From Verrucomicrobia bacterium UBA3761 (GTDB taxonomy: Bacteria; Verrucomicrobiota; Kiritimatiellia; RFP12; UBA1067): a stretch of DNA of 60,270 bases. A program made the position numbers and the translations under genes. How positions within the stretch are numbered: the first letter of the stretch is position 1; the number at the start of each line of letters is the position of its first letter. Where the stretch lies: positions 1-60,270 of the forward strand of contig DFGB01000027.1 of the NCBI GenBank assembly GCA_002371135.1, written 5' to 3'. Positions 1-60,270 of this stretch are shown here, piece by piece. The notes below the pieces were generated by a model. It had not been told where the DNA came from, did no database searches, and saw only the letters and a program-made list of their open reading frames with translations.

Positions 1-296
1 CGAAAGGCCTCTCTACGATAGAGTGCGCCAAGCAGTTTGGATTATCGCAACCCGCTTGGAATTTCTACGAGCTGGGATCTCGTGAGCCCAAGTTAGACTT
101 GCTTACTAAGATATGCCAATTCTTTGACGTGCCATCTGACGTTTTGTTGGGTCTGTCTGACAAAGCGTTAGTGTCAGCCGAGCGGCCAGCGCCATTGGCT
201 ATTGACATAGAGAAGTTGCGCAAGACAGCGGAGAAGCTTGTCAAAGAATCCTCTACGCTTGCGGGAACAATCAAAGAATTGAAGACGATGTTGTAA
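1..296 (+). CDS. XRE-family helix-turn-helix regulator (5' end outside window)
   Basis: Frame 3 is open from the window edge. It translates to KGLSTIECAKQFGLSQPAWNFYELGSREPKLDLLTKICQFFDVPSDVLLGL, a classic HTH_3/XRE motif, with the stop at 294-296. Confidence 0.8.
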   Translation, partial: KGLSTIECAKQFGLSQPAWNFYELGSREPKLDLLTKICQFFDVPSDVLLGLSDKALVSAERPAPLAIDIEKLRKTAEKLVKESSTLAGTIKELKTML

Positions 297-310
297 AGAG
301 GTATGAGAAA

Positions 311-808
311 ATGAAACCTGAAAAGAACGAAATCCTGTTGCGCGAACCTCTATCTGGTGAAATGCCGTTAGTGTCGCGCTTTCGCTTGGTATACCGTGAC
401 CCTCTTGCGACGATAACAGCAGTAAACGATTTTGACTCGTTTGTAAGGATTTGTCGATCAAATGGTATCCGGCGGGTAGATCGGATGAAAAAACTCTATA
501 ATCTTTACCTTGCAATCAGCAAAACTAGACTAAACCTGTCGATGGAGCACTTACGGAATTTTAAAGCGACAGTTCCTGATTACAAGGATGTTTCTGTCTC
601 CTTTTTTTTAGATGATATTGCACGACTTGCCGCTTTCGGAATTGTCATCATAGATACGCCAAGCCTAAAAGCAATAAAGGCACAAGAAGAATATGATCGC
701 ATCCACGAAATATGCAGAGAACGAGGTATAGAGTTGATAGACTTCAGCGACTTATTAAAAGATGAAACACAGAGCACCACATGCACAAAGAAAGGCAAGG
801 GAAATTAA
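311..808 (+). CDS. Hypothetical protein (165 aa), AT-rich prophage cargo gene
   Basis: ATG is preceded by GAGG about 9 nt upstream. It lies 15 nt after the XRE stop and is clearly lower in GC than the phage late genes. No motif recognised. Confidence 0.6.
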   Translation: MKPEKNEILLREPLSGEMPLVSRFRLVYRDPLATITAVNDFDSFVRICRSNGIRRVDRMKKLYNLYLAISKTRLNLSMEHLRNFKATVPDYKDVSVSFFLDDIARLAAFGIVIIDTPSLKAIKAQEEYDRIHEICRERGIELIDFSDLLKDETQSTTCTKKGKGN

Positions 809-809
809 A

Positions 810-1265
810 ATGAATAAGCCGTGTCTTTTGGATTGGACCGTTCTTGATCTATGCGAGGCGTCGTATGAAAGTCCGTATGGCGAATATTGTGACGTTATCC
901 GGGTTTCAGATTTTGAGGATACCAGGCGGTTTGTTGTAGTGTGCTTCAACGCAAACAAATGTGATCAGGCTAGACATTACGGCTTCCTGCTGGAGGATTA
1001 TGCGCCGATGAAGATCGCTCCGCTGCCATATGCTACAACGGTGCAAGCTATTTTTGATGTATGCAAAGGCCGGGAGTTGCCGATAGTCGCAGAAGTCTCA
1101 GAATGCGGAGAGCGATGTTTGATTATTGCTACATGCTGCGAACCGTGGCTCAGTTGGTTTTATCTTATGTTTGGGGATGTCGACCAAAAGACACAAGCAA
1201 GCGGAATAAAAGCACTCAAGCCGATCATTGTGGCGAGGCTAATAGCGCTTCATAAAAACAGGTAA
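810..1265 (+). CDS. Hypothetical Cys-rich protein (151 aa)
   Basis: ATG at 810 lies 1 nt after the upstream stop, with AGGGA upstream. This start is preferred over the overlapping ORF-track start at 762. The protein has about 10 Cys residues and AT-rich codons. It is followed by a terminator. Confidence 0.55.
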   Translation: MNKPCLLDWTVLDLCEASYESPYGEYCDVIRVSDFEDTRRFVVVCFNANKCDQARHYGFLLEDYAPMKIAPLPYATTVQAIFDVCKGRELPIVAEVSECGERCLIIATCCEPWLSWFYLMFGDVDQKTQASGIKALKPIIVARLIALHKNR

Positions 1266-1322
1266 ATAATTAGATTTGCAAACTCACTTGCAAGCCCTCT
1301 GCAAGGGACGTTTTTCATTCCC

Positions 1323-1350
1323 GCACGGTCGATTGACCGTGCGTTTTTTT
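1323..1350 (+). terminator. Intrinsic terminator ending the XRE/cargo operon
   Basis: GCACGGTC-GATT-GACCGTGC forms an 8-bp GC-rich stem, followed by GTTTTTTT. Confidence 0.7.
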
Positions 1351-1420
1351 GTGCATGAAAGTGACGCCTGACAAGGGTGCAAAAGTGCATTTCAGCCGCC
1401 ATTTACGCGGTTTTTTGCGT

Positions 1421-1474
1421 TATTCAAGATGATTCAAATTCCTCATGCGTGAGGAATTTGAATCATCTTGAATA
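1421..1474. repeat. Perfect 25-bp inverted repeat (hairpin, 4-nt loop)
   Basis: TATTCAAGATGATTCAAATTCCTCA (1421-1445), loop TGCG, then TGAGGAATTTGAATCATCTTGAATA (1450-1474). CCCCTTTTT follows. Confidence 0.95.
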
Positions 1475-1484
1475 CCCCTTTTTA

Positions 1485-1655
1485 GGGCTAGCAACGGCGT
1501 GGAGGGCTAGCAGGGCTAATAAATCAATTTGATTGATTTAGCCCATTTAGCCCATTTAGCCCATTTTGCGCTAGCACCCCCGTCTAGGGCTAGCAGGGCT
1601 AATAAATCAATTTGATTGATTTAGCCCTTTTAGCCCTTTTTGCGCTAGCACCCCC
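1485..1655. repeat. Iteron-like direct repeats with GCTAGC cores and an AT-rich palindrome
   Basis: Two ~70-80-bp units (1503-1581 and 1586-1655) each contain AGGGCTAGCAGGGCTAATAAATCAATTTGATTGATTTAGCCC, TTTAGCCC repeats and GCGCTAGCACCCCC. GCTAGC occurs 5 times. Each unit carries the TAAATCAAT-TTG-ATTGATTTA palindrome. Confidence 0.9.
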
Positions 1656-1674
1656 TTGCACCCCCGTGCGGCGT

Positions 1675-1703
1675 TTGAAATTGCGTTGACAAAATGCGAT
1701 AAT
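1675..1703 (+). promoter_or_regulatory. Sigma70-type promoter (TTGAAA-17 nt-TGcGATAAT)
   Basis: -35 TTGAAA at 1675-1680, a 17-nt spacer, and an extended -10 with TG at 1695-1696 and GATAAT at 1698-1703. Confidence 0.55.
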
Positions 1704-1709
1704 ATGGGC

Positions 1710-1799
1710 GCATTAAGGCTCAAAAGTGTGTCTCCTCCTACCACAGGCCTCCGGCGCTGGGACGCCGGCGCGTGGCCCCGGCGCGACGGGGCGTTTTTT
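1710..1799 (+). ncRNA. Candidate ~90-nt short transcript (promoter to terminator) upstream of the late operon
   Basis: The predicted start is ~7 nt after the -10 box. There are two hairpins: CCGGCG/CGCCGG at 1751-1768 and GCCCCG/CGGGGC at 1775-1792. The second is followed by a T-run. No plausible ORF. Confidence 0.3.
1775..1799 (+). terminator. Intrinsic terminator
   Basis: GCCCCG-GCGCGA-CGGGGC followed by GTTTTTT. Confidence 0.55.
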
Positions 1800-1800
1800 A

Positions 1801-2111
1801 GGGAAGAGGGAAGAGGGAAGAGGGAAGTAGAAAGTAGGAAGTAGAAAGTAGGAAGTAGGAAGTAGGAAGTAGAAAGTAGGAAGTAGGAAGTAGGAAGTAG
1901 GAAGTAGAAAGTAGGAAGTAGGAAGAGGTTGTTTAATGTTGCCATTGTGAAAATGTTGCCAGTTCCAATGTTGCCAATTTCCAATTGGGAACAGGGAAGA
2001 GGGAAGAGGGAAAAGCCTAGGAAACTCTGCGACTCTGCGGCTCTGCGATAAAAATAGGGAATAGGGAAGAGGGAAGAGAATTTTCGATTTTCGATTTTTC
2101 GATTTACGATT
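1801..2111. repeat. Patchwork of at least five different short tandem repeats
   Basis: (GGGAAGA)n at 1801-1826, 1993-2013 and 2054-2078. (GTAGRAAG) about 12 copies at 1824-1925. AATGTTGCCA x3 at 1935-1976. GGAAA(CTCTGCGN)x3 ATAAAAA at 2020-2054. (TTTTCGA)x4 at 2080-2111. Confidence 0.95.
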
Positions 2112-49442: not shown

Positions 49443-49603
49443 GGCTCTTCGCACATTTTGGTGGGAATCGCTTTCGCTACACCTCCGGATACAGGGCTAG
49501 ACGCCCGCACGAAAATATAGCATACCATTCGGCATGGAACTAAATGCCCACTACAGTCAGCTCCTCGGCATTGGGGAGGAATGGAAAATCACAGATGTCC
49601 GCA
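49443..49603 (+). mobile_element. ISL3-family IS remnant (terminal IR plus first ~23 transposase codons)
   Basis: GGCTCTTCGCACATTTTGG at 49443 resembles ISL3-type terminal repeats (GGCTCTTC..., from memory). The ATG at 49534 gives MELNAHYSQLLGIGEEWKITDV, like the N-terminus of ISL3 transposases. Similarity ends at about 49600-49625. Confidence 0.45.
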
Positions 49604-49854
49604 TTGTCCTCACGATTCGCCTCATCTTCCTCATTCAGCAGATTCACATCGGCGATGATTCCCATCGTGTCGGTAATCTTGCATGGTATCGACTCCATGA
49701 GCGACTTGGCCTTGGCCACTCCCACGGGTGTGCCATTGTCCGCACGTCCAATATAGAGCGCTCCGCCGTATGCGTTCGCATACCCGCAAATCCATTCAAG
49801 ATACTCGTCGTGCCACGACTGCTTGAACTCTATCGTCTGTGTTTCTTTCTTCAT
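49540..49854 (-). pseudogene. 3'-truncated AlbA_2 (Schlafen-type) domain gene fragment
   Basis: TQTIEFKQSWHDEYLEWICGYANAYGGALYIGRADNGTPVGV...IPCKITDTMGIIADVNLL is a typical AlbA_2 N-terminus. After about residue 80 the ORF reads antisense IS sequence. Confidence 0.65.
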
Positions 49855-49900
49855 TGCCGTACCTTTTTACACTGCCGCGCCCTACAAACGCCATCGGCCA

Positions 49901-50041
49901 TCAGACTTCATCCGTCAGCCTGCGCAGCTCCTCGCGGATGCGCTCGGCCTCTTCCGCGTCACCATGCATGACGGCATACTCAAGCAGGGCGTCAAGTCGC
50001 TTGATCGCCTCTATCGTGTCGTCTCTCTGCGGCATCGCCAT
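49901..50041 (-). CDS. Possible small ORF (46 aa, helical)
   Basis: MAMPQRDDTIEAIKRLDALLEYAVMHGDAEEAERIREELRRLTDEV. It was found by hand and is below the ORF-track size cut-off. The SD is weak or distant. Confidence 0.2.
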   Translation of the reverse strand: MAMPQRDDTIEAIKRLDALLEYAVMHGDAEEAERIREELRRLTDEV

Positions 50042-50091
50042 AGTCTCTACTCAGTCCTTTCTACTCCACCGATGGGGACCTCTATCATCCC

Positions 50092-51345
50092 TTAAAGGTT
50101 AGCGCCCGAAAACTCGGAACGGAAGCGATACTTGCCCTTGCCACGCCCTTTCATGGTATCAAGAAGACGATGGCGAAGCATCGTCCTTATTAACATTCCC
50201 GCAGGCCCATCTGCCAACCCACAAACTTTCATGACCAGCGCACGACCGAAAACCTCCACATCGCTAAACTCATTATAAAGTTTCATTATGTTGGCATAGG
50301 TCGGGCGAGTCAACTTAAGCCCCGACAAGGCCTCTTCAATCGGCTGTTTTCGGGACCCAATCGGCTGTTTTCCCGCTCCAATCGGCTGTTTTCCCGCTCC
50401 AATCGGCTGTTTTCCTGTCTCAATATGCGGGTTTTCGTCCCCAATAGGCTTTTTTTCAAACGGGAAACGAATGGAATCCAGCTTTTTCAGCGAAACGGAT
50501 ATGACAAAGTTGTTGCCCTCGATGAAGACAGGATCAGCCCCGCCATAGTCCTTACTGTATTTGTAAAGATTGCGGACGCCCGAGCCGAGGCGGTCCGCAC
50601 GGCCGATTTCCCGGAAGAACCCTGCGATGATGGGATTCTTCGCACGCGGGCGAACATTCTCCGGCGTCACCCGTCCGTCCTGCATGGGATTACATGGATT
50701 CGACGTGTACATCCGGTCTCGTTCAATGACAAACTCTGACTTGTCCAAGCTTGTGAACTCGCGATGAATCAGAATGTTTGCCACCATCTCTCGGACGATT
50801 ATCTCACGTAGATTCAACCGCTTGTCCTCCTCAAGGAAGAAAGGCGCTGGCAGGTGCTTGCGCGAAAACTCCAAAAGCTCGTCGTAGCTTTCGAGCAGAT
50901 TTGTCCGAACGATGCGCCGATCATCGTAGCGATCGACATTCACGACGCGCAACAGCGCATCCGTCTCGTACTGCGGACAGATACGCATCAACGTCTCGTC
51001 CTTCCCCAAGAGCAGCACCGCCGCCAAGTTAAAGCCCGTCTCCTTTGTTACCTTGTCTTCGTCAATCAGTCCCGACGCACGGAAAAGCGCCTCGTCGTCC
51101 ATATCCATCCACGGATGTCGCTTGCCATCCGTCAAATGATTCTGCGCTTCCCGACGCACAAGCGGCAACATGTCCAAGCGAAAATCATCAAGCTTCAGTT
51201 GCGGGAACACCTCGCGCTCGGTGTAGATGCCCTTCTTGCGCATGTAGAGATCGGCGATCTGAGCCGTCGCCCTGATTTTCACGTCCACCTCGCCCATGCG
51301 GTCGTAGATGTCGCCGTGGTAGGAGTGAACATCGCCGCTGACCAG
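50092..51345 (-). pseudogene. 5'-truncated AlbA_2 / HATPase_c_4 transcriptional-regulator-like gene
   Basis: Carries the end of an AlbA_2 domain (HSYHGDIYDRMGEVDVKIRATAQIADLY), an ATPase-like core (REMVANILIHREF...NPIIAGFFREIGRADRLGSGVRN) and a C-terminal wHTH-like part. The first ~80-90 aa are missing. It contains four 21-bp repeats (KQPIGAG). Confidence 0.65.
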
Positions 51346-52432
51346 AGCTGAGACGCTTAAAGAATGCCATAGCAGACTTCCTCATCTCAGAGGGCGGGAA
51401 CTCAAGCAAACATTCGCCCTCTAACCGTTTAAGAATCGGATCACTTTTCAGAATCTCAAGACAAGACAACCATCGGCTTCTTCTTGGCTCATCTCGACAA
51501 TATGAAAGTGCTTCCGCAAAACACTCCTCCATCGGCTTGGGTTCGTCCCTCGTCACCCCGATACGGGTGAACGAGATTTGATTTGCACCCTTCCAAGTAT
51601 TTTGAGCATCGAACGCACTAAAAGATGCCGAGATAACGCCATACACACTCCCCTCTAGGAATTCTACTTTCCCAGGCTTGGATACGTACTCCTGCTCATC
51701 TTCTGCCTTACCACAAATCGCCTCACTTAAACACCGCAATAAATGCGTCTTACCGACACCATTCCGACCCACGATAACTTTAATATTTGATGGCAAGTTC
51801 GTCCTTGCTTGAACAGAGAATTCAAGAGAAACCAAGTTGGACACAGATACCATCCTAGGATAAGTATATGTAAAGCGAAAGTCCGTTAGAGCAGGTTTCC
51901 CATGGGCAAGTTTCGCATATCGATTCTTAAGTCTGTCCCGCGAAACACCACGCATAATCGAAACGCCCATTGAGTCTTCACCCTTAAACCGCTTATAAAG
52001 TTCCTGATTATAAGCTACATCCCTCAAGGCAACCAACACTCGCCTTGTCGATTTCTCACGACCGAAATATTCATAGTACGCATCCCCAACGCCCAAGGAG
52101 AAGAACGATTCGGGAAGAGCATAAAATTCTTGTGGAAGTACAGTCTTCCGCAATCCCATAGTCTCTTCACCAGACAGCACTAGCTTATTATAGGAATCGA
52201 CACCAAGGCCCTGTAAACCCACGTGCGAAATTCGCACCTCTTGCGCGGGCGCACGCCTGCCGTCGTCTCCAAAATAATGGATTGCGAACTTTGTTTCATA
52301 TTGGAACCAGTCATCCCAGCCAGTATGAACCAAATAGGCGACATCACGTGCAACTCTTGGCACTTGAGCAAAGCTCTCTACAACTTTGAATTTCATAGAT
52401 AATGTACAATTAAGATAAACTACGGAAGGCAT
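51188..52432 (-). pseudogene. 3'-truncated ABC/AAA-type ATPase with unassigned ~210-aa N-terminal domain
   Basis: Walker A GRNGVGKTHLL and signature-like KRLSSGQ. Immediately after (~51346) the frame runs into the unrelated, GC-richer AlbA_2 gene. Walker B and H-loop are absent. Confidence 0.6.
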
Positions 52433-52475
52433 ATCATTTATCTCAGATCTCCTTTAGTCATGGCTTGTTGCCAAA

Positions 52476-53525
52476 TTAAGCATGTTGCTCCCCCGTTTTC
52501 TTTCTGAACGCCGTAACGTCTTCCTCTTTCACAAAATAAAGGTTACCCTTCGTGCGCGTACATGCCACATAAAATTTATTACGGGTACTAGGTGCCAGTG
52601 ACTTCACATCGCCCTTAGCGAACTTATCATATGTGGACGAATTCAACACAACACATACATCGTCAAACGAAAGCCCTTTACACACACCCCAATTAGTTGC
52701 CTTGCAACTATACTCATACGATTTCTGATAAAACAATTTTTCGATTCGATCATCATTCATGATCGAATCGATACGACTTGCATCTGCAACCAGACAAGGA
52801 GGATTTACCTCAACCTGATTTGATGCGCCCATTTGAATACCAATCGTTGAACTAACAAAATCGCAGATCGCCTGAGGACAGCGGAAACTATTGTACAACG
52901 TCTGCTCATCAACTGTATACAATGCGTCAAACCGTTTCTTATAATTTAAATAATCATCATGCAAACTTTGATTCTTGGATCCGTCTCGGCTCGTATCAAA
53001 CGTATGCTGAAAGAAATCACCGGCGAGTAACACATTTAGCGTTGATTGTCCTAGCATTTCAATAAAATCGAAGTCATATCCGGCAAAGTCTTGAACTTCG
53101 TCAATAAATACACTGTCAAAAAACTGCGCGATCCGATGGAACAGTTTCCCATTTCCAATAAATTCACAAGCAAAGTGAAACGCTCGCGAATGAAAAACCT
53201 CCTCCCCGGCTCCCGTCACGAACCGATCCACTCCCTTTAAATATCGCGGAATCGGCTTTTTAGAATAGTGTAATCTTCGAATGCGTCGCCCTTCATCAAG
53301 GAGAAACGGTTTTATCATAAAATTTAGAAGGAAAGAAAAATATGTCGACACAAAAATATTGTCTGGAACCTTCTTAAACTTCTTAAGGATCGCGATTTCA
53401 AGATTATGTGCATTGTTCTCTGTATATGTCAAAAGCAAGCATCTGCCTGCCTGTGACAACTTGTCGACCAGGTATGTGGTTTTCCCTGCACCCGCCACAG
53501 CAAACAACACTTTTTTCATAACCAT
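52476..53525 (-). CDS. Minimal UvrD/SF1-like helicase (GajB-like partner)
   Basis: Motif I AVAGAGKTTYL, motif II FIDEVQDFAGYD and C-terminal YVACTRTKGNLYF. It is 349 aa and starts 7 nt after the OLD gene. Confidence 0.8.
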   Translation of the reverse strand: MVMKKVLFAVAGAGKTTYLVDKLSQAGRCLLLTYTENNAHNLEIAILKKFKKVPDNIFVSTYFSFLLNFMIKPFLLDEGRRIRRLHYSKKPIPRYLKGVDRFVTGAGEEVFHSRAFHFACEFIGNGKLFHRIAQFFDSVFIDEVQDFAGYDFDFIEMLGQSTLNVLLAGDFFQHTFDTSRDGSKNQSLHDDYLNYKKRFDALYTVDEQTLYNSFRCPQAICDFVSSTIGIQMGASNQVEVNPPCLVADASRIDSIMNDDRIEKLFYQKSYEYSCKATNWGVCKGLSFDDVCVVLNSSTYDKFAKGDVKSLAPSTRNKFYVACTRTKGNLYFVKEEDVTAFRKKTGEQHA

Positions 53526-53532
53526 TCAATCC

Positions 53533-55125
53533 CTATTTGCCTTGCATACCCGATAGCCACTTTATTGCTTTTGAAATATACGAAGGAGGGACAACCTCTT
53601 CCTTTGATTCCAAAATACGAAAAGCGGCTTCAGCCTTATGATCAAGCATATACTTGAGAGCATCAGGCTCATCTGAAAATATCTTCCCTATCTTTTCTTG
53701 GTTGTCATTGTATAAGCACACTTCAAATGTATACCTCGCAACATCTTCATCCACAAACACCTGTATTTTATCGCCGCAAAAACTCTCATACCACTTTTGA
53801 GATTTCTTATCGTTGTCTCGGACAACAGCCACTTTCGAGCCCAACACACTCCCAAGCTCAAGATATCTCGAGAAAGAAAGATTATTCAATGCAATCGTCC
53901 AGATACCAAGCGTTGCAGCATCTTCCCCCGTTATTGCTTTTATGAATTTTTCCATTAAGATGAATTCCGCAGCTCCCTCTACAAGTAAAATCTTCTTAGA
54001 AAGAACGAACTGTAGAATATTGTCATTCGGGGCCTTCATGAAGAAATTTGCCGTCTCACTTGAAATCTTACTCATCGAGCAAACTCTTTTGTTCACAAAA
54101 TAAACATTGCGTAAACCTATTCGAGATGTAATATAGCTATTATGCGTCACAATAAAAAGCTGTCGGTACTCCGCCTTCTCTTTGATATTCGCAATCAAAG
54201 TGCGCAAACATGAATGACTCAAATGGTTTTCGGGCTCCTCAATCGCCACAACAGACGATTTCTCTATATGCTTCAACAGCGCACTTTCCGTCTTGCACAT
54301 TGAAATATAGCCGTCTCCCCGCCCCGCAAGAGCAATACCATCTTTTTCAATCTCAAGGCAGGAATCCAAATCACCGATGACTTTCAGATCGCGCTTAATC
54401 GCCTCTGCAGGCAAAGTAAATTTCTCCGTATGCTGACGAAAATTAAGACGTGAAGACAACAAGTTCCGCTCATCAACAACATTCTGAAATGTGTTCTCGA
54501 CAATAAATCGCAACGCTTTAGCGGAATTAATAACAGTATTGTCTACAAATAAATAGCGGAAAGGCTTAAGGTACCCTGTATACGCCTGATCGGCAAACGT
54601 CGAAAATTCTACGGTATAAAATTCAAACGGGAAAATCTCAATTGTGTTCTTTCCCTCAACAATCTCTTCAATATCTTTAATGAAATCAGGATTGGGCTTA
54701 CATTCCATCTTGATTCCATATGTGGATTTACCATTCGAATTTAAATAATGCTCACCATTAAACCTATGCCATTTAGGTTCATCAGGCATATTCAAAAACA
54801 ATTCTATTGTAAGAACAGGAAGTGTTTCAATCGCCGGTGATTTCTTCCATTCGGAAACGGCCCTTGAATTGAAAAGACTCTTCAATCCTATACTTGTAAC
54901 CTTTGACACATTCCCGGATAGAACCAAATCTATACCATGGATAATAGAACTTTTTCCACTTCCATTATCGCCAACAAAGATGTTGTAGTCAGCATTGCAG
55001 ACAATCTTCTCATCTAAGAATACCCGATAATTCTTCAAGCGAATCTCTTTGATGGATATGTTCCTCATATCCTTTTCCTTCGCGTCTTCCGTCTGTGAAA
55101 GGTCGGCCATGTTATTTTTTTCCAT
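53533..55125 (-). CDS. OLD-family ATPase-TOPRIM nuclease (GajA-like)
   Basis: Walker A GDNGSGKSS, Walker B VVAIEEPENHLS and THNS. TOPRIM Glu in LLVEGAAEF and DxD in VVRDNDKK. An alternative start is at 55068 (MRNISIKEIRLKNY). Confidence 0.85.
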   Translation of the reverse strand: MEKNNMADLSQTEDAKEKDMRNISIKEIRLKNYRVFLDEKIVCNADYNIFVGDNGSGKSSIIHGIDLVLSGNVSKVTSIGLKSLFNSRAVSEWKKSPAIETLPVLTIELFLNMPDEPKWHRFNGEHYLNSNGKSTYGIKMECKPNPDFIKDIEEIVEGKNTIEIFPFEFYTVEFSTFADQAYTGYLKPFRYLFVDNTVINSAKALRFIVENTFQNVVDERNLLSSRLNFRQHTEKFTLPAEAIKRDLKVIGDLDSCLEIEKDGIALAGRGDGYISMCKTESALLKHIEKSSVVAIEEPENHLSHSCLRTLIANIKEKAEYRQLFIVTHNSYITSRIGLRNVYFVNKRVCSMSKISSETANFFMKAPNDNILQFVLSKKILLVEGAAEFILMEKFIKAITGEDAATLGIWTIALNNLSFSRYLELGSVLGSKVAVVRDNDKKSQKWYESFCGDKIQVFVDEDVARYTFEVCLYNDNQEKIGKIFSDEPDALKYMLDHKAEAAFRILESKEEVVPPSYISKAIKWLSGMQGK

Positions 55126-55130
55126 AATTG

Positions 55131-56756
55131 TTAAACTCCAAAAATGTCTTTTTTGAGCTTCGCGTAGACTGACATGCCCGGCTCAATCAACGGCGCTAAA
55201 GTGTCACGCGCAAAGGCCTCGTGAGTGTTTCCGCATTTAGTCAGCCCCAGTGTCGATTTAACCGCATTGTACAACGGTCCCGCAATACTCTTTACATCAT
55301 CTGGCGGTGTCACACCGACCATCAACTGGTTCTTCGTTGCAAGCAGCTGCGAAAGCAATTCATCATGTTGATTGACATGGCACAACTTACCGAGCACCTC
55401 ATCGTCCCACAAGTAATTTTCTAAATCACGCAAGGTCAAAACACGCCCGCCTTGTGCAACCAAATCTGCCACTTCCTGCGAGCTTCGGTCATCGCAATCA
55501 TAAATGGTTTCGATCTTGACCCCAGAAACACACTCTTTCAAGACAGATCCGGCGATCAGCGCATTTTTATCTACATCATTACAACCACCAACTGATATGA
55601 ATTGAACATCAGGAAATTCTCTCTCAAAAATCTGATTGTAACATCGTGCATCGAAATTTGGATTTCGGCGTGCGCCTTGTTCACGCCGCTGCCCTTCACA
55701 AAGAAATATTCGCTTAGGAGCGATGAGCGAAACCATATCGCCAAGAGCAACTTCAAATGCCGACTTCCAATAAGTTCTCGTGGGGACTATCGGCTCAACA
55801 ATCTGTGGGGCATCAAAGTCGCGGTTGGAAAAATCCAGAAAAACCACATTCTCAGGGTTTGCCTCATATAGTTCCTTCGCCTTTCGAATCATTCCTAACG
55901 AATGCGTGGCTATCCACAACTGGCAATTTGAAGGAATCAGGTTGTTCATTTCCTCCAAAAGATTTCCAGCCAGCGACGAATGCATATGCAGTTCAGGTTC
56001 GTCGATGCAAAATACCGTATTATTAAAATCTTTCGTCTTAATCACAAGATCAAGCAGCAGATCAAATGCCGCCTTCTCTCCACCTGACAAATTTTTGTAA
56101 GGAAAATTGTGACTGGCACCCTTCGTAAACAAAAACGTTCCATCTTGCAGCGGACGACCAAAGCTTTCAAGATTTAAGTCTGGGAATACGCGTTTCATCG
56201 ACACTTGCACGGCCGCGATATACTTATCGCGCAATCGCGTTCTTGAAACATCGTTATCAGATCCTGGCTCGGACAATTCTTCAACAAGAAAAGAAACCAT
56301 GCTCTGGTAATTTGCCGAAACACGTTTGTCTCTCGCCACCATCCAACAAGGATCCTCTTCATCGGAAAGAAGCGGAGCCTGTCGTCTCAGTCCATCCATG
56401 TGAAACCCCTCTTCAAAACGGTAGGCAGAACGAAAATAAAAAGATTTCCTACCTTCATCATCCCCAGACTTCAATTTTGAACAGTCATAAAACTCTACCT
56501 TTATTCGCGATTCACTCCTTCCTTCTGGTGCCGTACCATCCGCTCGTATCTTAGCAAGGTAGTTATTATCATAAGCACGATAGCAATTGTTATGCTTAAC
56601 ACCAGTTGAAAAAAGTGAAAATGCATCAAAAACAGACGACTTACCCGAACCATTCCGTCCCAACAAAACTATCAACTTGGCTGTTTGCGGAATAGACCTT
56701 ATCGTGAGATTTGAGAATCTCCTAAAGTCCGTCAGTTTTACCTCTTTGATTTTCAT
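55131..56756 (-). CDS. ABC-type ATPase fused to a DUF4435/TOPRIM-like domain (fused AriA-AriB/PARIS-like, or class-1 OLD-like)
   Basis: Walker A GRNGSGKSS, signature LSGGEKAAF, Walker B VFCIDEPELHMH and IATHS. The C-terminal IFLCEGQ...FDARCYNQIF...YDCDDRS fits the DUF4435/TOPRIM pattern. Confidence 0.75.
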   Translation of the reverse strand: MKIKEVKLTDFRRFSNLTIRSIPQTAKLIVLLGRNGSGKSSVFDAFSLFSTGVKHNNCYRAYDNNYLAKIRADGTAPEGRSESRIKVEFYDCSKLKSGDDEGRKSFYFRSAYRFEEGFHMDGLRRQAPLLSDEEDPCWMVARDKRVSANYQSMVSFLVEELSEPGSDNDVSRTRLRDKYIAAVQVSMKRVFPDLNLESFGRPLQDGTFLFTKGASHNFPYKNLSGGEKAAFDLLLDLVIKTKDFNNTVFCIDEPELHMHSSLAGNLLEEMNNLIPSNCQLWIATHSLGMIRKAKELYEANPENVVFLDFSNRDFDAPQIVEPIVPTRTYWKSAFEVALGDMVSLIAPKRIFLCEGQRREQGARRNPNFDARCYNQIFEREFPDVQFISVGGCNDVDKNALIAGSVLKECVSGVKIETIYDCDDRSSQEVADLVAQGGRVLTLRDLENYLWDDEVLGKLCHVNQHDELLSQLLATKNQLMVGVTPPDDVKSIAGPLYNAVKSTLGLTKCGNTHEAFARDTLAPLIEPGMSVYAKLKKDIFGV

Positions 56757-56772: not shown

Positions 56773-59700
56773 TTACTCCATCGGCTTGATCATGGATTCG
56801 ATGAACTTCTGCTCGGATTTGGTGATGCCGTATTTCGCGTAGAGCTGGGCGTCGATTTCAGAAACAGGACGCGACCAGTCGATGTCGGATCTCGAAGTGA
56901 AATCTTGAAGAGGAACAAAACGATACACCCTATCTTGCGCGTGTTGGGTGACTTTCGCCGCACAAACAAGAATACGGAAGAAACGCGTCTTTAGATATGA
57001 CGAAAAGTTCGTTGCCTCCTCATGAGAGTTAAACTTTGCATACAGATATGTTTGCGAACACACCGACTGCTTAGGCGCAACCTCGGGTTCTCCCAATATC
57101 TGGTGCGGAAAACTTTCCCCCGCGCCATACGCACCAGGAATAAACACCTTGTCTAACTTTACATCTGAGGCGTTCTTTGCGATTGCTTTGCCGCGAACAT
57201 AGCCGACGATGCGCTTGCCACCCTTCCAGTAGTATAGAGCGGTATCGAACTCGGTGGTCTTTTTGTCGCTGACAGCGAACGGTGTTTTCTTGCTTTCACC
57301 GGGATTTGTGGGGATGCCGAATGGCGTATCGGCAGAGATGATGGTGGATACTGTCTCATCGCGGCCATCGCGCTGGCAAGCCCCTACCACTTTCCGCACA
57401 ATAGCGGCGGTTCTTGGGTTGCGAATGAAAATGGGGAACTCGTTCATGGCGATTGTCGCGGTGTCGGTCTTACCGTTTTCGTTCAGCGAGTATTCGCACA
57501 TTCCATTATGCTCGCGGTCTTCGAGGTAATAGCACACGCCGCCCTTGATTTCAGCCGTCGGGAACAGAGAATGTGCATCGGCGAATGCAAAGAGTTTGCG
57601 GACGTGGCCGCAACCAAGCATCCGCTCGCGAAACGTCTTCAGTTGGCTTTCGCGTCCGGCGGCAAACCACTTGGCGGGGATGATGAGTGAAACGAAGTGG
57701 GTTGTGATGGTCGATGCCGCATCGGCAAAATACTGGAAAATCGGCGCGTCGTTCGTTCCGCCTGAACCACCCATCAACTGATACGGCGGATTGCCGACCA
57801 CTGCGTCAAACTTGAGCATTTTCATTTCAAACTCCTTGTTGTTCCATGCGTTGCCGCCACAGACCTTGTTGTAGAATTTCTTCGGTTCGTTCTTGAGCAG
57901 TTCCACGAGATTCTTGATGTACTGCGCATTGACCGTCGCCTTGTCGTCGTAGCCGACGAGCGTGCGCCGCGTGATAGCCCGTGCCATGGGCGTTTTGCAG
58001 ACGACGAAGAGCGAACGCGCAACCACCTCGCGCCACAGTTTCGCAAGCGCCGCCGGCGTCACCGCGTCCTCCGGCACATCGCCGAGTTTGCGGCGGTAGA
58101 GCGAGTAGGCCACGTAGAGCGGATAGAGGCCGGATTTGGAATTGATTTCGAGAATCTTCGCATCGGGCTTGCCAAATATAGCCTGTGTCACACCCCCATG
58201 CTCAACATGCCGCGGCGCATCCTCAATAGGTTTATCAAAGTTCTCGTCCCAGAAACACCAGCCGCCGATGGTGTCGGCAAGGTGCATGTTCACGACGCGC
58301 CAGGGCGTGAGAACGGTTTCCTTGTCGGGGTTCTTGAAGTAGCCGAATATCCGCGCGATCTGCTGGACGCGCCTTGTCGGCGGAAGCTTGTCCGCGCTCT
58401 TGGCGAGTTTTCGTATCTGCGTGCCCGCTTCCGCAAAAACATCCGCGTCGTAGTATTCGACGAACTTCTTGAAGATCGCCTTTGTGACGCCCTGCGGCAT
58501 GAACTCCGCCCACGACTCGTCATCGACGAGGTTTGGAAAGTCCTTGATTGAAATGACCTGCTCTATTGGCACGTCCGCTCCGTAGATGAGAAGTGGCATG
58601 CGTATCGAGATTGCGCGGAGAATGAGAATCGCGTTTTTCTTTTCCGCGCGGCGGCGCTTCATCTCCTCGCGCGCGGCCTTTTCCTCTTCGGAGAGCGGTC
58701 GCGACGGAGCGCTGCCCTCCCGCTTTTCATGTTCCTCGTCGGCAAAATCCTGTTCGTTGACATAGACGGTATCGGCCATCTTCGTCTGCTTGGACGACCC
58801 GACGATCTTCCGAAGGTCCTCGAACTTCTTCAGGTCGATGTCAGTCAGCTCAAGGAGCCGGTTGGAGTAGAGCGACGTGTCGTCAAAGCCGTTGCGGATG
58901 GTCTTCATCACGAAGATGTGCTTGATCGAGGCCATCATCTTCTTGACGTCGTGCACCTCCATCTTCGAGCCGGAGATGGATATGACGGGACAGTAGTTCA
59001 GGAACTCGCCGAGGATGCGGCGTCCGTTCGATTCGGTCGTGTCGTTCTTCGACACGCGGCACGAGACCTGAGCCGTCTCGGCCAGCACCTTCAATGCACG
59101 GTCAGGCGCGAAATCGAACGCATAGCAGTCGGTTTTCATCTTGCCGCCGAGGTCGCCAGGACTCTGCACGCGGAAGATCGTCTGCATGTACTGTGCGGCG
59201 GACGTGACCGCGCTTCCGGCGACCATGAGGACGGCCGTCCATTCGGGGACCGTCACGCCGGTTGTGAGCTTGCCGCACGAGAGCGTGATGGAATACTCGT
59301 TCTCGCGGATGGTCTTCTTCACGAGTTCGAGTGCGCTGTCGTAATGCCGCTCTTCGTAGTCGTCACCCTCACCGGCGACATTGGCGATACCGTATTCCTT
59401 GAAGTACCTATGTTTGCGCAACAGGGCGGAAAGCGCCTTCGCGGACGCGACGCCCGGCACCATCCAAAGCGTGTGGCGGAAGAGGTCGCGATGCTCTTGC
59501 GTGGCAAACGGGTAGCGGCTTTTCGGGCTGTCGCCGGAAATCAGGTCGAGGAAGCGCCGCACATCATCCTCATGCACGAAGTCGCCGACCTTGGCGTCTC
59601 GCGGGACGGGATGATGGTCGATTTCCTTGTCGCCGGTCCAGGTGCGGAAGAACTCGCGGAAGTTGAACGCCTTGCCTTCAAGGTCGTCTTCCGAGAATCC

Positions 59701-60270
59701 GTCAAGTTCCGCGCCGAGGTCGTACGTGTAGAGATTGAGGCGCGGCAGGGCGGCGTAGGGATTGGGTTCGTCGGGATGTTCTTCGTCCCACGTCTCCTTC
59801 CGCTTCTGCTCCATCACGTAGTCCCAGACGAAAACCGAATCTTCGTCGTACTGCGAGAGGATGTTGAACGGCGTGCCGGAAAGCGAGAGGACTTTCGTGT
59901 GCTTCTTGACGAGATGCTCGCGGACTTCCTTGCCAAGGTCGGTCTGAGTCCCCTCGTGCGCTTCGTCGACGATCACGAGGTCCCAATCCATGTTGAATAC
60001 GCCGCGGTTCTTGTCGTACTTGCCGTTCACGATCTGCGAGCCGCGCAAGTCCTGGATGGACGCGAAGTAGATGAAACGCTTGCCCGATTCGTCGAGGCGG
60101 GCGAGTTCGCGGTCGTTCCGCGCCTCCACCTTGTCGTTGAACTCGTATGCTCCGCCGCCAAGAGAGCTCTTGCGGTAGAACGTATAGCCGTCCACCTTCG
60201 TAAAGAGCTTGTTGAAATCCTCCTGCCAGCCGCTACCCACCACCGGGCGGTGCGTGACGATGATGACGCG
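56773..60270 (-). CDS. SF2 helicase - N6-adenine DNA methyltransferase fusion (Type ISP-like restriction-modification enzyme); N-terminus outside window
   Basis: The frame is open to the window edge (RVIIVTHRPVVGSGWQ...). DEAH box LVIVDEAHEG, motif III-like LSLSGTPFN, SAM-binding-like ILEINSKSGLYPL and catalytic VVGNPPYQ. About 350 aa of putative target-recognition region follow the MTase motifs. Confidence 0.75.
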   Translation of the reverse strand, partial: RVIIVTHRPVVGSGWQEDFNKLFTKVDGYTFYRKSSLGGGAYEFNDKVEARNDRELARLDESGKRFIYFASIQDLRGSQIVNGKYDKNRGVFNMDWDLVIVDEAHEGTQTDLGKEVREHLVKKHTKVLSLSGTPFNILSQYDEDSVFVWDYVMEQKRKETWDEEHPDEPNPYAALPRLNLYTYDLGAELDGFSEDDLEGKAFNFREFFRTWTGDKEIDHHPVPRDAKVGDFVHEDDVRRFLDLISGDSPKSRYPFATQEHRDLFRHTLWMVPGVASAKALSALLRKHRYFKEYGIANVAGEGDDYEERHYDSALELVKKTIRENEYSITLSCGKLTTGVTVPEWTAVLMVAGSAVTSAAQYMQTIFRVQSPGDLGGKMKTDCYAFDFAPDRALKVLAETAQVSCRVSKNDTTESNGRRILGEFLNYCPVISISGSKMEVHDVKKMMASIKHIFVMKTIRNGFDDTSLYSNRLLELTDIDLKKFEDLRKIVGSSKQTKMADTVYVNEQDFADEEHEKREGSAPSRPLSEEEKAAREEMKRRRAEKKNAILILRAISIRMPLLIYGADVPIEQVISIKDFPNLVDDESWAEFMPQGVTKAIFKKFVEYYDADVFAEAGTQIRKLAKSADKLPPTRRVQQIARIFGYFKNPDKETVLTPWRVVNMHLADTIGGWCFWDENFDKPIEDAPRHVEHGGVTQAIFGKPDAKILEINSKSGLYPLYVAYSLYRRKLGDVPEDAVTPAALAKLWREVVARSLFVVCKTPMARAITRRTLVGYDDKATVNAQYIKNLVELLKNEPKKFYNKVCGGNAWNNKEFEMKMLKFDAVVGNPPYQLMGGSGGTNDAPIFQYFADAASTITTHFVSLIIPAKWFAAGRESQLKTFRERMLGCGHVRKLFAFADAHSLFPTAEIKGGVCYYLEDREHNGMCEYSLNENGKTDTATIAMNEFPIFIRNPRTAAIVRKVVGACQRDGRDETVSTIISADTPFGIPTNPGESKKTPFAVSDKKTTEFDTALYYWKGGKRIVGYVRGKAIAKNASDVKLDKVFIPGAYGAGESFPHQILGEPEVAPKQSVCSQTYLYAKFNSHEEATNFSSYLKTRFFRILVCAAKVTQHAQDRVYRFVPLQDFTSRSDIDWSRPVSEIDAQLYAKYGITKSEQKFIESMIKPME

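Follow-up and report, generated by a model that had tools for sequence, protein, structure and literature searches.

In the Gabija system of Bacillus cereus VD045 the gene for GajA is directly followed by that for GajB, a protein of 494 residues whose two RecA cores are accompanied by two accessory subdomains (PMC10681800), and the mechanism of the GajA:GajB complex has been studied in that organism (PMC8136825, PMC10781630, PMC10822852). PARIS is a system in which sensing of Ocr frees a TOPRIM tRNA nuclease (PMC11464382), and single-gene fusions of AriA to AriB are an accepted form of it (PMC9122126, PMC11464382). Both PARIS and PrrC have been described as guardians of restriction-modification (RM) systems (PMC12707154), a concept that is also set out in a preprint (bioRxiv 10.1101/2023.04.06.535777). 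Here we analyse three neighbouring minus-strand genes, which we call gene A, gajA and gajB, in a stretch of 60,270 nt from Verrucomicrobia bacterium UBA3761 (contig DFGB01000027.1, positions 1 to 60,270; this whole stretch is referred to as the window, and its features are listed in Table 1). An earlier note on this DNA had proposed that the three genes, encoding two ATPase-TOPRIM proteins and a helicase, form an expanded, three-component Gabija, or alternatively that two known systems are stacked. We consider it very probable (roughly 0.85) that the genes belong to independent systems of known kinds, lying end to end on one strand in a defence island. The first block would consist of a type IIG RM gene and, 16 nt after its stop codon, gene A, encoding a fused-PARIS-like ATPase-TOPRIM protein. 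The second would be a two-gene Gabija of GajA, a class 2 OLD nuclease whose start is probably M20 of its reading frame, and a short-form GajB, and the third a truncated PDC-M01A/PtuA-like ATPase gene.

To characterise the surroundings of gene A we took one genome per species, which gave 427 relatives, and analysed the best 80 loci, including flanks of 8 kb where the contig was long enough. When these flanks were searched by tblastn with the window GajA and GajB proteins, neither was found at any of the 80 A-family loci. For the reciprocal survey metagenomes were scanned with an alignment of GajA sequences, and we analysed the best 80 of at least 532 loci, at 35-52% identity. A GajB homologue lies directly 3' of GajA in 79 of these 80 loci, and apart from it no neighbour recurs in more than six; no A-like gene was found beside GajA in any of the 54 loci that have at least 1.7 kb of upstream sequence. 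The synteny that an expanded system would predict, homologues of gene A next to pairs of an OLD gene and a short helicase gene, was therefore absent among the best 80 of the 427 relatives. Since A-family loci lack Gabija, GajA loci lack A, and the pair itself scores as standard Gabija (see below), the three-component proposal is unsupported and the stacked arrangement is the one that stands. Gene A occurring without Gabija and with fused PARIS as its best match, beside a pair that scores as ordinary Gabija, is also essentially what the earlier note had said it would expect of two independent systems.

The closest A-bearing relatives show where the two blocks meet. A protein 98% identical to A (P0001) is encoded in five rumen contigs, at least three of them from bovine metagenomes, in the order type IIG RM gene, RhuM gene, A and a small open reading frame (ORF), and none of the five carries Gabija. 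In blastn comparisons these contigs (L081-L085) match the window from 56847 to 55072 at 97.3% identity and then, after about 18 nt, resume at 50077..49880. The segment without a counterpart, 50078..55071, contains gajA, gajB, the PDC-M01A-like gene in truncated form and a HATPase_c_4 gene for a protein of 401 aa, and is the insertion or deletion that brought Gabija beside A. As these closest relatives have no Gabija block 3' of A, the juxtaposition of A with Gabija is best read as a recent rearrangement and not as a functional three-gene unit. The stacked alternative is thus borne out by this indel as well as by both surveys.

The position of the junction also bears on the apparent tightness of the cassette. 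Taken as maximal ORFs, genes A and gajB have the extents given in Table 1 and gajA runs over 53533..55125 (530 aa), which leaves the gaps of 5 and 7 nt on which the earlier note had relied. However, GajA homologues are 504-522 aa long and their alignments begin at about residue 20 of the maximal ORF, the match to the PADLOC GajA profile begins at residue 24, and codons 1-18 of the maximal ORF consist of 3'-flanking DNA of A that is also present in relatives without GajA. This spacer region is 97% identical, up to window position 55072, to the DNA 3' of A in the Gabija-less L081-L085, and the left junction of the indel precedes by 3 nt the ATG of M20, which is at 55068. Homologue starts, profile start and A-flank codons together point to M20 as the most likely true start of gajA. 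The gap between A and gajA would then be 62 nt, and the 5-nt gap is probably artefactual, the ORF having been extended too far; gajB still starts 7 nt past gajA. The composition of the genes was likewise only partly as previously described. All three are AT-rich (A 44.5% GC, gajA 39.5%, gajB 41.2%) relative to the host gene carB (62.9%) and the adjacent RM gene (56.6%), but they are not uniform, as A lies 4-5 GC points above gajA and gajB. A scan for promoters and terminators gave counts near those expected from shuffled sequence and nothing decisive at the A-gajA junction.

We found that gajA and gajB have the profile matches and gene order of an ordinary Gabija pair. The gajA product matches the PADLOC GajA profile PDLC00102 almost end to end (E 7.1e-89; residues 24-523 on profile positions 2-531 of 532), and Pfam OLD-like_TOPRIM is also matched (E 5.2e-11), together with AAA_15/AAA_21. 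Its best solved relative in the PDB is GajA of B. cereus (E 3.5e-10), with the LLVEGAAE and RDND TOPRIM motifs in register, and every family-invariant residue is present. The gajB product matches the PADLOC GajB profile PDLC00148 (E 1.1e-54; residues 4-336 on positions 3-356 of 369) as well as Pfam Viral_helicase1 and UvrD-helicase, and in an ORF-based MAFFT alignment the helicase motifs I, Ia, II, III, IV, V and VI are kept across 59 orthologues. The domain calls made from the bare sequence, an OLD ATPase-TOPRIM protein followed by a superfamily 1 (SF1) UvrD-like helicase, were therefore correct for both genes. No match to GajB was obtained when the sequences of solved structures were searched with phmmer.

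The window pair thus resembles the B. cereus system in gene order, in the combination of an ABC ATPase with an OLD TOPRIM domain carrying the conserved E and DxD residues in GajA, and in the SF1 motifs I-VI of GajB. It differs in size: the window GajA has about 511 aa against 578 in B. cereus, with some 180 residues alignable by sequence, and the window GajB 349 aa against 494. The helicase is therefore shorter than canonical GajB, as had been pointed out, but this is normal for the subfamily: the downstream GajB copies in the GajA survey have a median length of 342 aa, full-length ones span 336-353 aa, and the two PADLOC GajB profiles are themselves short (369 and 365 positions). A GajB of 349 aa is consequently of normal size for this subfamily, already modelled by PADLOC, and is not a new variant; at this length most of the accessory (2B-like) subdomain at the C-terminus is probably missing. 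A literature search for a three-gene Gabija returned only 'type II Gabija', which pairs GajB with a MazF-like GajC and has no relation to the present case. From the pairing in 79 of 80 loci, the variable flanks and the full-length PADLOC matches, we conclude that GajA and the short GajB make up an ordinary, self-contained two-gene Gabija of a known subfamily.

Gene A belongs to a large, well-conserved and widespread family of proteins of about 540 aa, as a protein search gave 4504 matches, with full-length relatives at 44-60% identity in many phyla. The product scores 70.4 bits on Pfam AAA_21 (cut-off 27) and 62.9 bits on AAA_15 (cut-off 32.1); a search of NCBIfam returned sub-threshold ATPase matches only. 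In the family alignment the ATPase half has an invariant Walker A (G33-K39), an LSGGE signature (223-227), a DEPE Walker B (252-255) and an H-loop, and the C-terminal part has the invariant residues E354, in a CEG motif, D420, D422 and E446. Among defence profiles the best PADLOC match is to the PARIS fusion AriAB (PDLC02981; E 2.8e-23, 80.5 bits), residues 221-474 aligning with positions 308-547 of 694. DefenseFinder uses a different profile, AAA_21+DUF4435, with a published cut-off of 20 bits (PMC9122126). AriAB was the top PADLOC family in all 21 members of the A family that we tested, with a best E of 3.8e-30. When the C-terminal domain was searched by itself, 12 of 15 members still matched AriAB (best 6.5e-9) and six of the 15 matched AriB (best 4.7e-5), and Pfam DUF4435 was matched by five of 21 members (best E 4.9e-4).

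The relationship of A to GajA was assessed by profile-profile comparison. With hhalign the full-length A family aligned to the GajA family at a probability of 98.4% (E 8.5e-15), collinearly through the TOPRIM region, pairing the CEG motif of A with VEGAAE of GajA and the DxDDRS of A with RDND; the C-terminal domain of A alone gave a weak (E 0.025) but motif-consistent alignment. This significant collinear match makes A an ATPase-TOPRIM protein of the OLD superfamily, and it is in this sense, as distant relatives, that the two ATPase-TOPRIM proteins can be called paralogous, as had been suggested; their identity is just about 20%. AlphaFold2 models of A had a mean predicted local distance difference test (pLDDT) score of 85.5 for the full-length protein and 88.4 for the C-terminal domain. 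A Foldseek search of the PDB with the full-length model was dominated by ABC ATPase heads (PtuA, Rad50, SMC) and was uninformative on the C-terminal domain. Taken together, the profile data place A at a distance among proteins of the fused-PARIS/OLD kind, with fused PARIS (AriAB) as its closest defence profile; the match is weak, and A is likely to belong to PARIS as a distant member. Within the family, one relative (P0006, 67% identity to A overall) has a C-terminal region of about 190 aa that is almost identical to that of the window protein, and an N-terminal half that is apparently far more diverged. Such a mosaic suggests recombination within the A family.

The genes that do recur around A are those of RM systems. 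In the 80 genome loci, 31 have an RM-cluster gene within 6 kb of A, and the genes are typically arranged as hsdM-hsdS-A-(AlbA_2/HATPase_c_4 gene)-hsdR; members of the family are also found beside type III, SNF2 and DUF1156/DUF499 loci. In 19 of 75 loci the gene immediately upstream of A encodes HsdS, and in 19 of 76 the stop codon of the upstream gene, mostly hsdS, overlaps the ATG of A by 4 nt (examples are L022, L024, L027, L036-L038, L041, L047, L048, L050, L054, L056-L058 and L063). This overlap indicates that the A-family gene is translationally coupled to that of the type I RM specificity subunit. In the lineage of the window A always comes after an Eco57I-like RM gene or what is left of one, and in L081-L086 the RM C-terminus is represented upstream of A by a remnant or a homologue. 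In L081-L085 a RhuM gene now separates the RM gene from A, and the last 26 codons of the RM gene persist as a remnant 5' of A. We conclude that the conserved linkage is between RM genes and A, and not between A and Gabija.

A number of observations weigh against the assignment to independent systems of these kinds. With regard to the nature of A, the window protein has no match to Pfam DUF4435, and its isolated C-terminal domain scores just E 0.03 on AriAB. A Foldseek search with the C-terminal model returned no TOPRIM or AriB match, the best E being 0.028 and the structures found unrelated Rossmann-like folds, and a profile search of PDB sequences with this domain gave chance matches to ribosomal proteins only. 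With regard to independence, the three genes are on the same strand and no terminator is predicted between them, so co-transcription and some functional interplay are possible. Very divergent Gabija genes might have been overlooked by tblastn of the 8-kb flanks, and the order A-GajA-GajB recurs in one further contig, L086. However, the DNA of L086 is 96-99% identical to the window, which places it in the same lineage, and its copy of A (898-2349, P0002) has an in-frame deletion of 39 aa (residues 326-364), with loss of the invariant CEG TOPRIM motif, and also stops 19 codons early, although an assembly artefact is possible for these lesions. The GajA and GajB of L086 are intact and 99.4% and 98.6% identical, respectively, to those of the window. 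L086 would therefore represent a case of Gabija retained beside a decaying A.

If the comparison with PARIS is taken further, A has in common with fused AriAB an N-terminal AAA_21/AAA_15 ABC ATPase joined to a C-terminal TOPRIM-like domain, and the E...DxD...E spacing of A resembles that of AriB (E26, D88-E90, E122). The association with RM genes fits the anti-anti-restriction role of PARIS. On the other hand, A has 541 aa against about 760 for AriA and AriB combined, the match is a distant one of 80 bits with partial coverage of the profile, and as a single chain A cannot free its effector from its sensor in the way that AriB leaves AriA. The apparent translational coupling of many A-family members to hsdS is a further difference, as it is unmentioned in the PARIS accounts cited here. 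It is in this respect that A calls to mind PrrC of EcoprrI, and also RloC and RonA of Ronin, abortive-infection effectors of type I RM loci. The genomic arrangement is alike, with an ATPase-containing effector gene placed within an hsdM-hsdS-X-hsdR operon, and in many A-family loci A overlaps hsdS at its stop/start. In contrast to PrrC, the partner of the window A is of type IIG and not type I, and we saw no sequence relation of A to the PrrC nuclease domain; the resemblance would therefore be one of function and not of family membership.

The analogy with PARIS and PrrC suggests that A might act as a backup guard. The ATPase half of the protein would hold the nuclease half silent until a phage anti-restriction factor or inhibition of the RM system was sensed, and the TOPRIM domain would then cut tRNA or DNA, so that the infection was aborted. 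The adjacent GajA and GajB would act separately, as a complex of the kind described in B. cereus, with a DNA nicking activity that nucleotide levels in the cell keep suppressed and that is freed during infection.

Among the other explanations, the one that fares best is an extension of this. The A family could constitute an uncharacterised clade of its own, made up of single-chain ATPase-TOPRIM proteins that resemble OLD and PARIS and are physically wired into RM operons, each acting as a PrrC-like, RM-dependent guard that senses inhibition of its partner RM system, unlike the free-standing AriA sensor; we regard this as a tentative suggestion that is doubtful as it stands. That A in this lineage also modulates the adjacent Gabija is much less likely.

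It is also unlikely, and more so than the RM-dependent clade, that A is a class 1 OLD-type DNA nuclease that stands alone, functionally unconnected to its neighbours and close to RM genes simply because defence genes cluster in islands. Like P2 Old and T. scotoductus OLD, A is the product of a single gene that combines an ABC ATPase with a TOPRIM domain, it matches an OLD family significantly in hhalign, its full-length model was aligned by Foldseek to T. scotoductus OLD (6p74), and about 60% of A-family loci have no recognisable RM neighbour. However, A has no match to Pfam OLD-like_TOPRIM, the PADLOC Old profile covers the ATPase stretch 241-294 alone, and the AriAB and AriB profiles fit A better. 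The 4-nt stop/start overlaps in 19 loci, mostly with hsdS, point to operon membership rather than mere proximity, and this embedding in RM operons differs from class 1 OLD genes, which are described as isolated and not near other candidate defence genes (PMC10568477).

An expanded Gabija, in which A would serve as a second ATPase-TOPRIM subunit and as sensor or regulator with GajA and GajB from one operon, is highly improbable, because the closeness and common strand of the genes, their shared AT-richness relative to the host, the distant homology of A to GajA, the lack of a predicted terminator between these two and the same gene order in L086 are outweighed by the absence of co-occurrence in 80 A-family and 80 GajA loci, the near-identical A without Gabija, the block junction exactly between A and gajA, the loss of a catalytic motif from A in L086 next to an intact Gabija, and the conservation of GajA and short GajB as a pair with variable flanks.

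Table 1. Coordinates of the genes and other features of the cassette and its surroundings within the window.
Feature	Position	Strand	Basis
Type IIG / ISP-like RM gene (Eco57I-type methylase and helicase-like domain)	56773..60270	-	Pfam Eco57I E 1.6e-21, ResIII; PADLOC REase_MTase_IIG E 3.5e-59
Gene A, single-chain ABC ATPase and TOPRIM-like (DUF4435-type) protein, 541 aa	55131..56756	-	Pfam AAA_21, AAA_15; PADLOC AriAB
Probable true A-gajA spacer, 62 nt, corresponding to 3' flank of the A module	55069..55130	-	Flank identity; GajA homologue starts
gajA, class 2 OLD-family ABC ATPase-TOPRIM nuclease, 511 aa from M20	53533..55068	-	PADLOC GajA; Pfam OLD-like_TOPRIM
gajB, short SF1/UvrD-like helicase-core protein, 349 aa	52476..53525	-	PADLOC GajB; Pfam UvrD-helicase, Viral_helicase1
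PDC-M01A / PtuA-like defence ATPase gene, 5' fragment	51338..52432	-	PADLOC PDC-M01A E 1.5e-71
401-aa HATPase_c_4 gene	50092..51297	-	Domain content
104-aa ORF, N-terminus AlbA_2-like by eye	49540..49854	-	Visual resemblance
Indel block of about 5 kb, without counterpart in the closest A-bearing relatives	50078..55071	.	blastn against L081-L085

The remaining genes of the region are consistent with an island in decay. The PDC-M01A fragment, from a third defence ATPase gene unrelated to the others, aligns over residues 13-365 with positions 1-354 of the 510 of its PADLOC profile, and breaks off at about profile position 354-364 of 510-520. The break falls at the LSSGQ signature motif, after which the sequence passes out of frame into higher-GC DNA (junction at about 51337). 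L086 is 99% identical to the window until the two diverge at 51334-51338, and carries an intact 520-aa copy of PDC-M01A together with its subsequent partner gene. We conclude that the region is a decaying defence island, of which the truncated PDC-M01A gene is a sign.

At the other end, the reading frame of the RM gene stays open to the end of the window, so that the listed ORF of 1156 aa lacks the 5' end of what is a longer gene. A scan of the window for transfer RNA genes that might mark an integration site found none. Positions 1..2000 are likewise AT-rich, at 45.8% GC against about 62% for the remainder of the window, and could be a further acquired segment. As regards the HATPase_c_4 gene, its 401-aa product lacks the usual N-terminal AlbA_2 domain. 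Genes of putative AlbA_2-like/HATPase_c_4-resembling architecture (cluster c3) lie beside A homologues in 13 loci, mostly type I RM operons, and such genes may be another recurrent RM-linked accessory.

The cassette is thus a routine juxtaposition of defence modules, the Gabija part of which is already recognised by existing annotation profiles. It gives two grounds for caution in reading such loci, as tight spacing and a common AT-richness within a defence island are no proof of a single system, and a maximal ORF can fabricate an apparent coupling of 5 nt. If A is indeed an RM-coupled guard, the anti-anti-restriction systems of the PrrC/PARIS class would gain a common, single-chain representative in its family.

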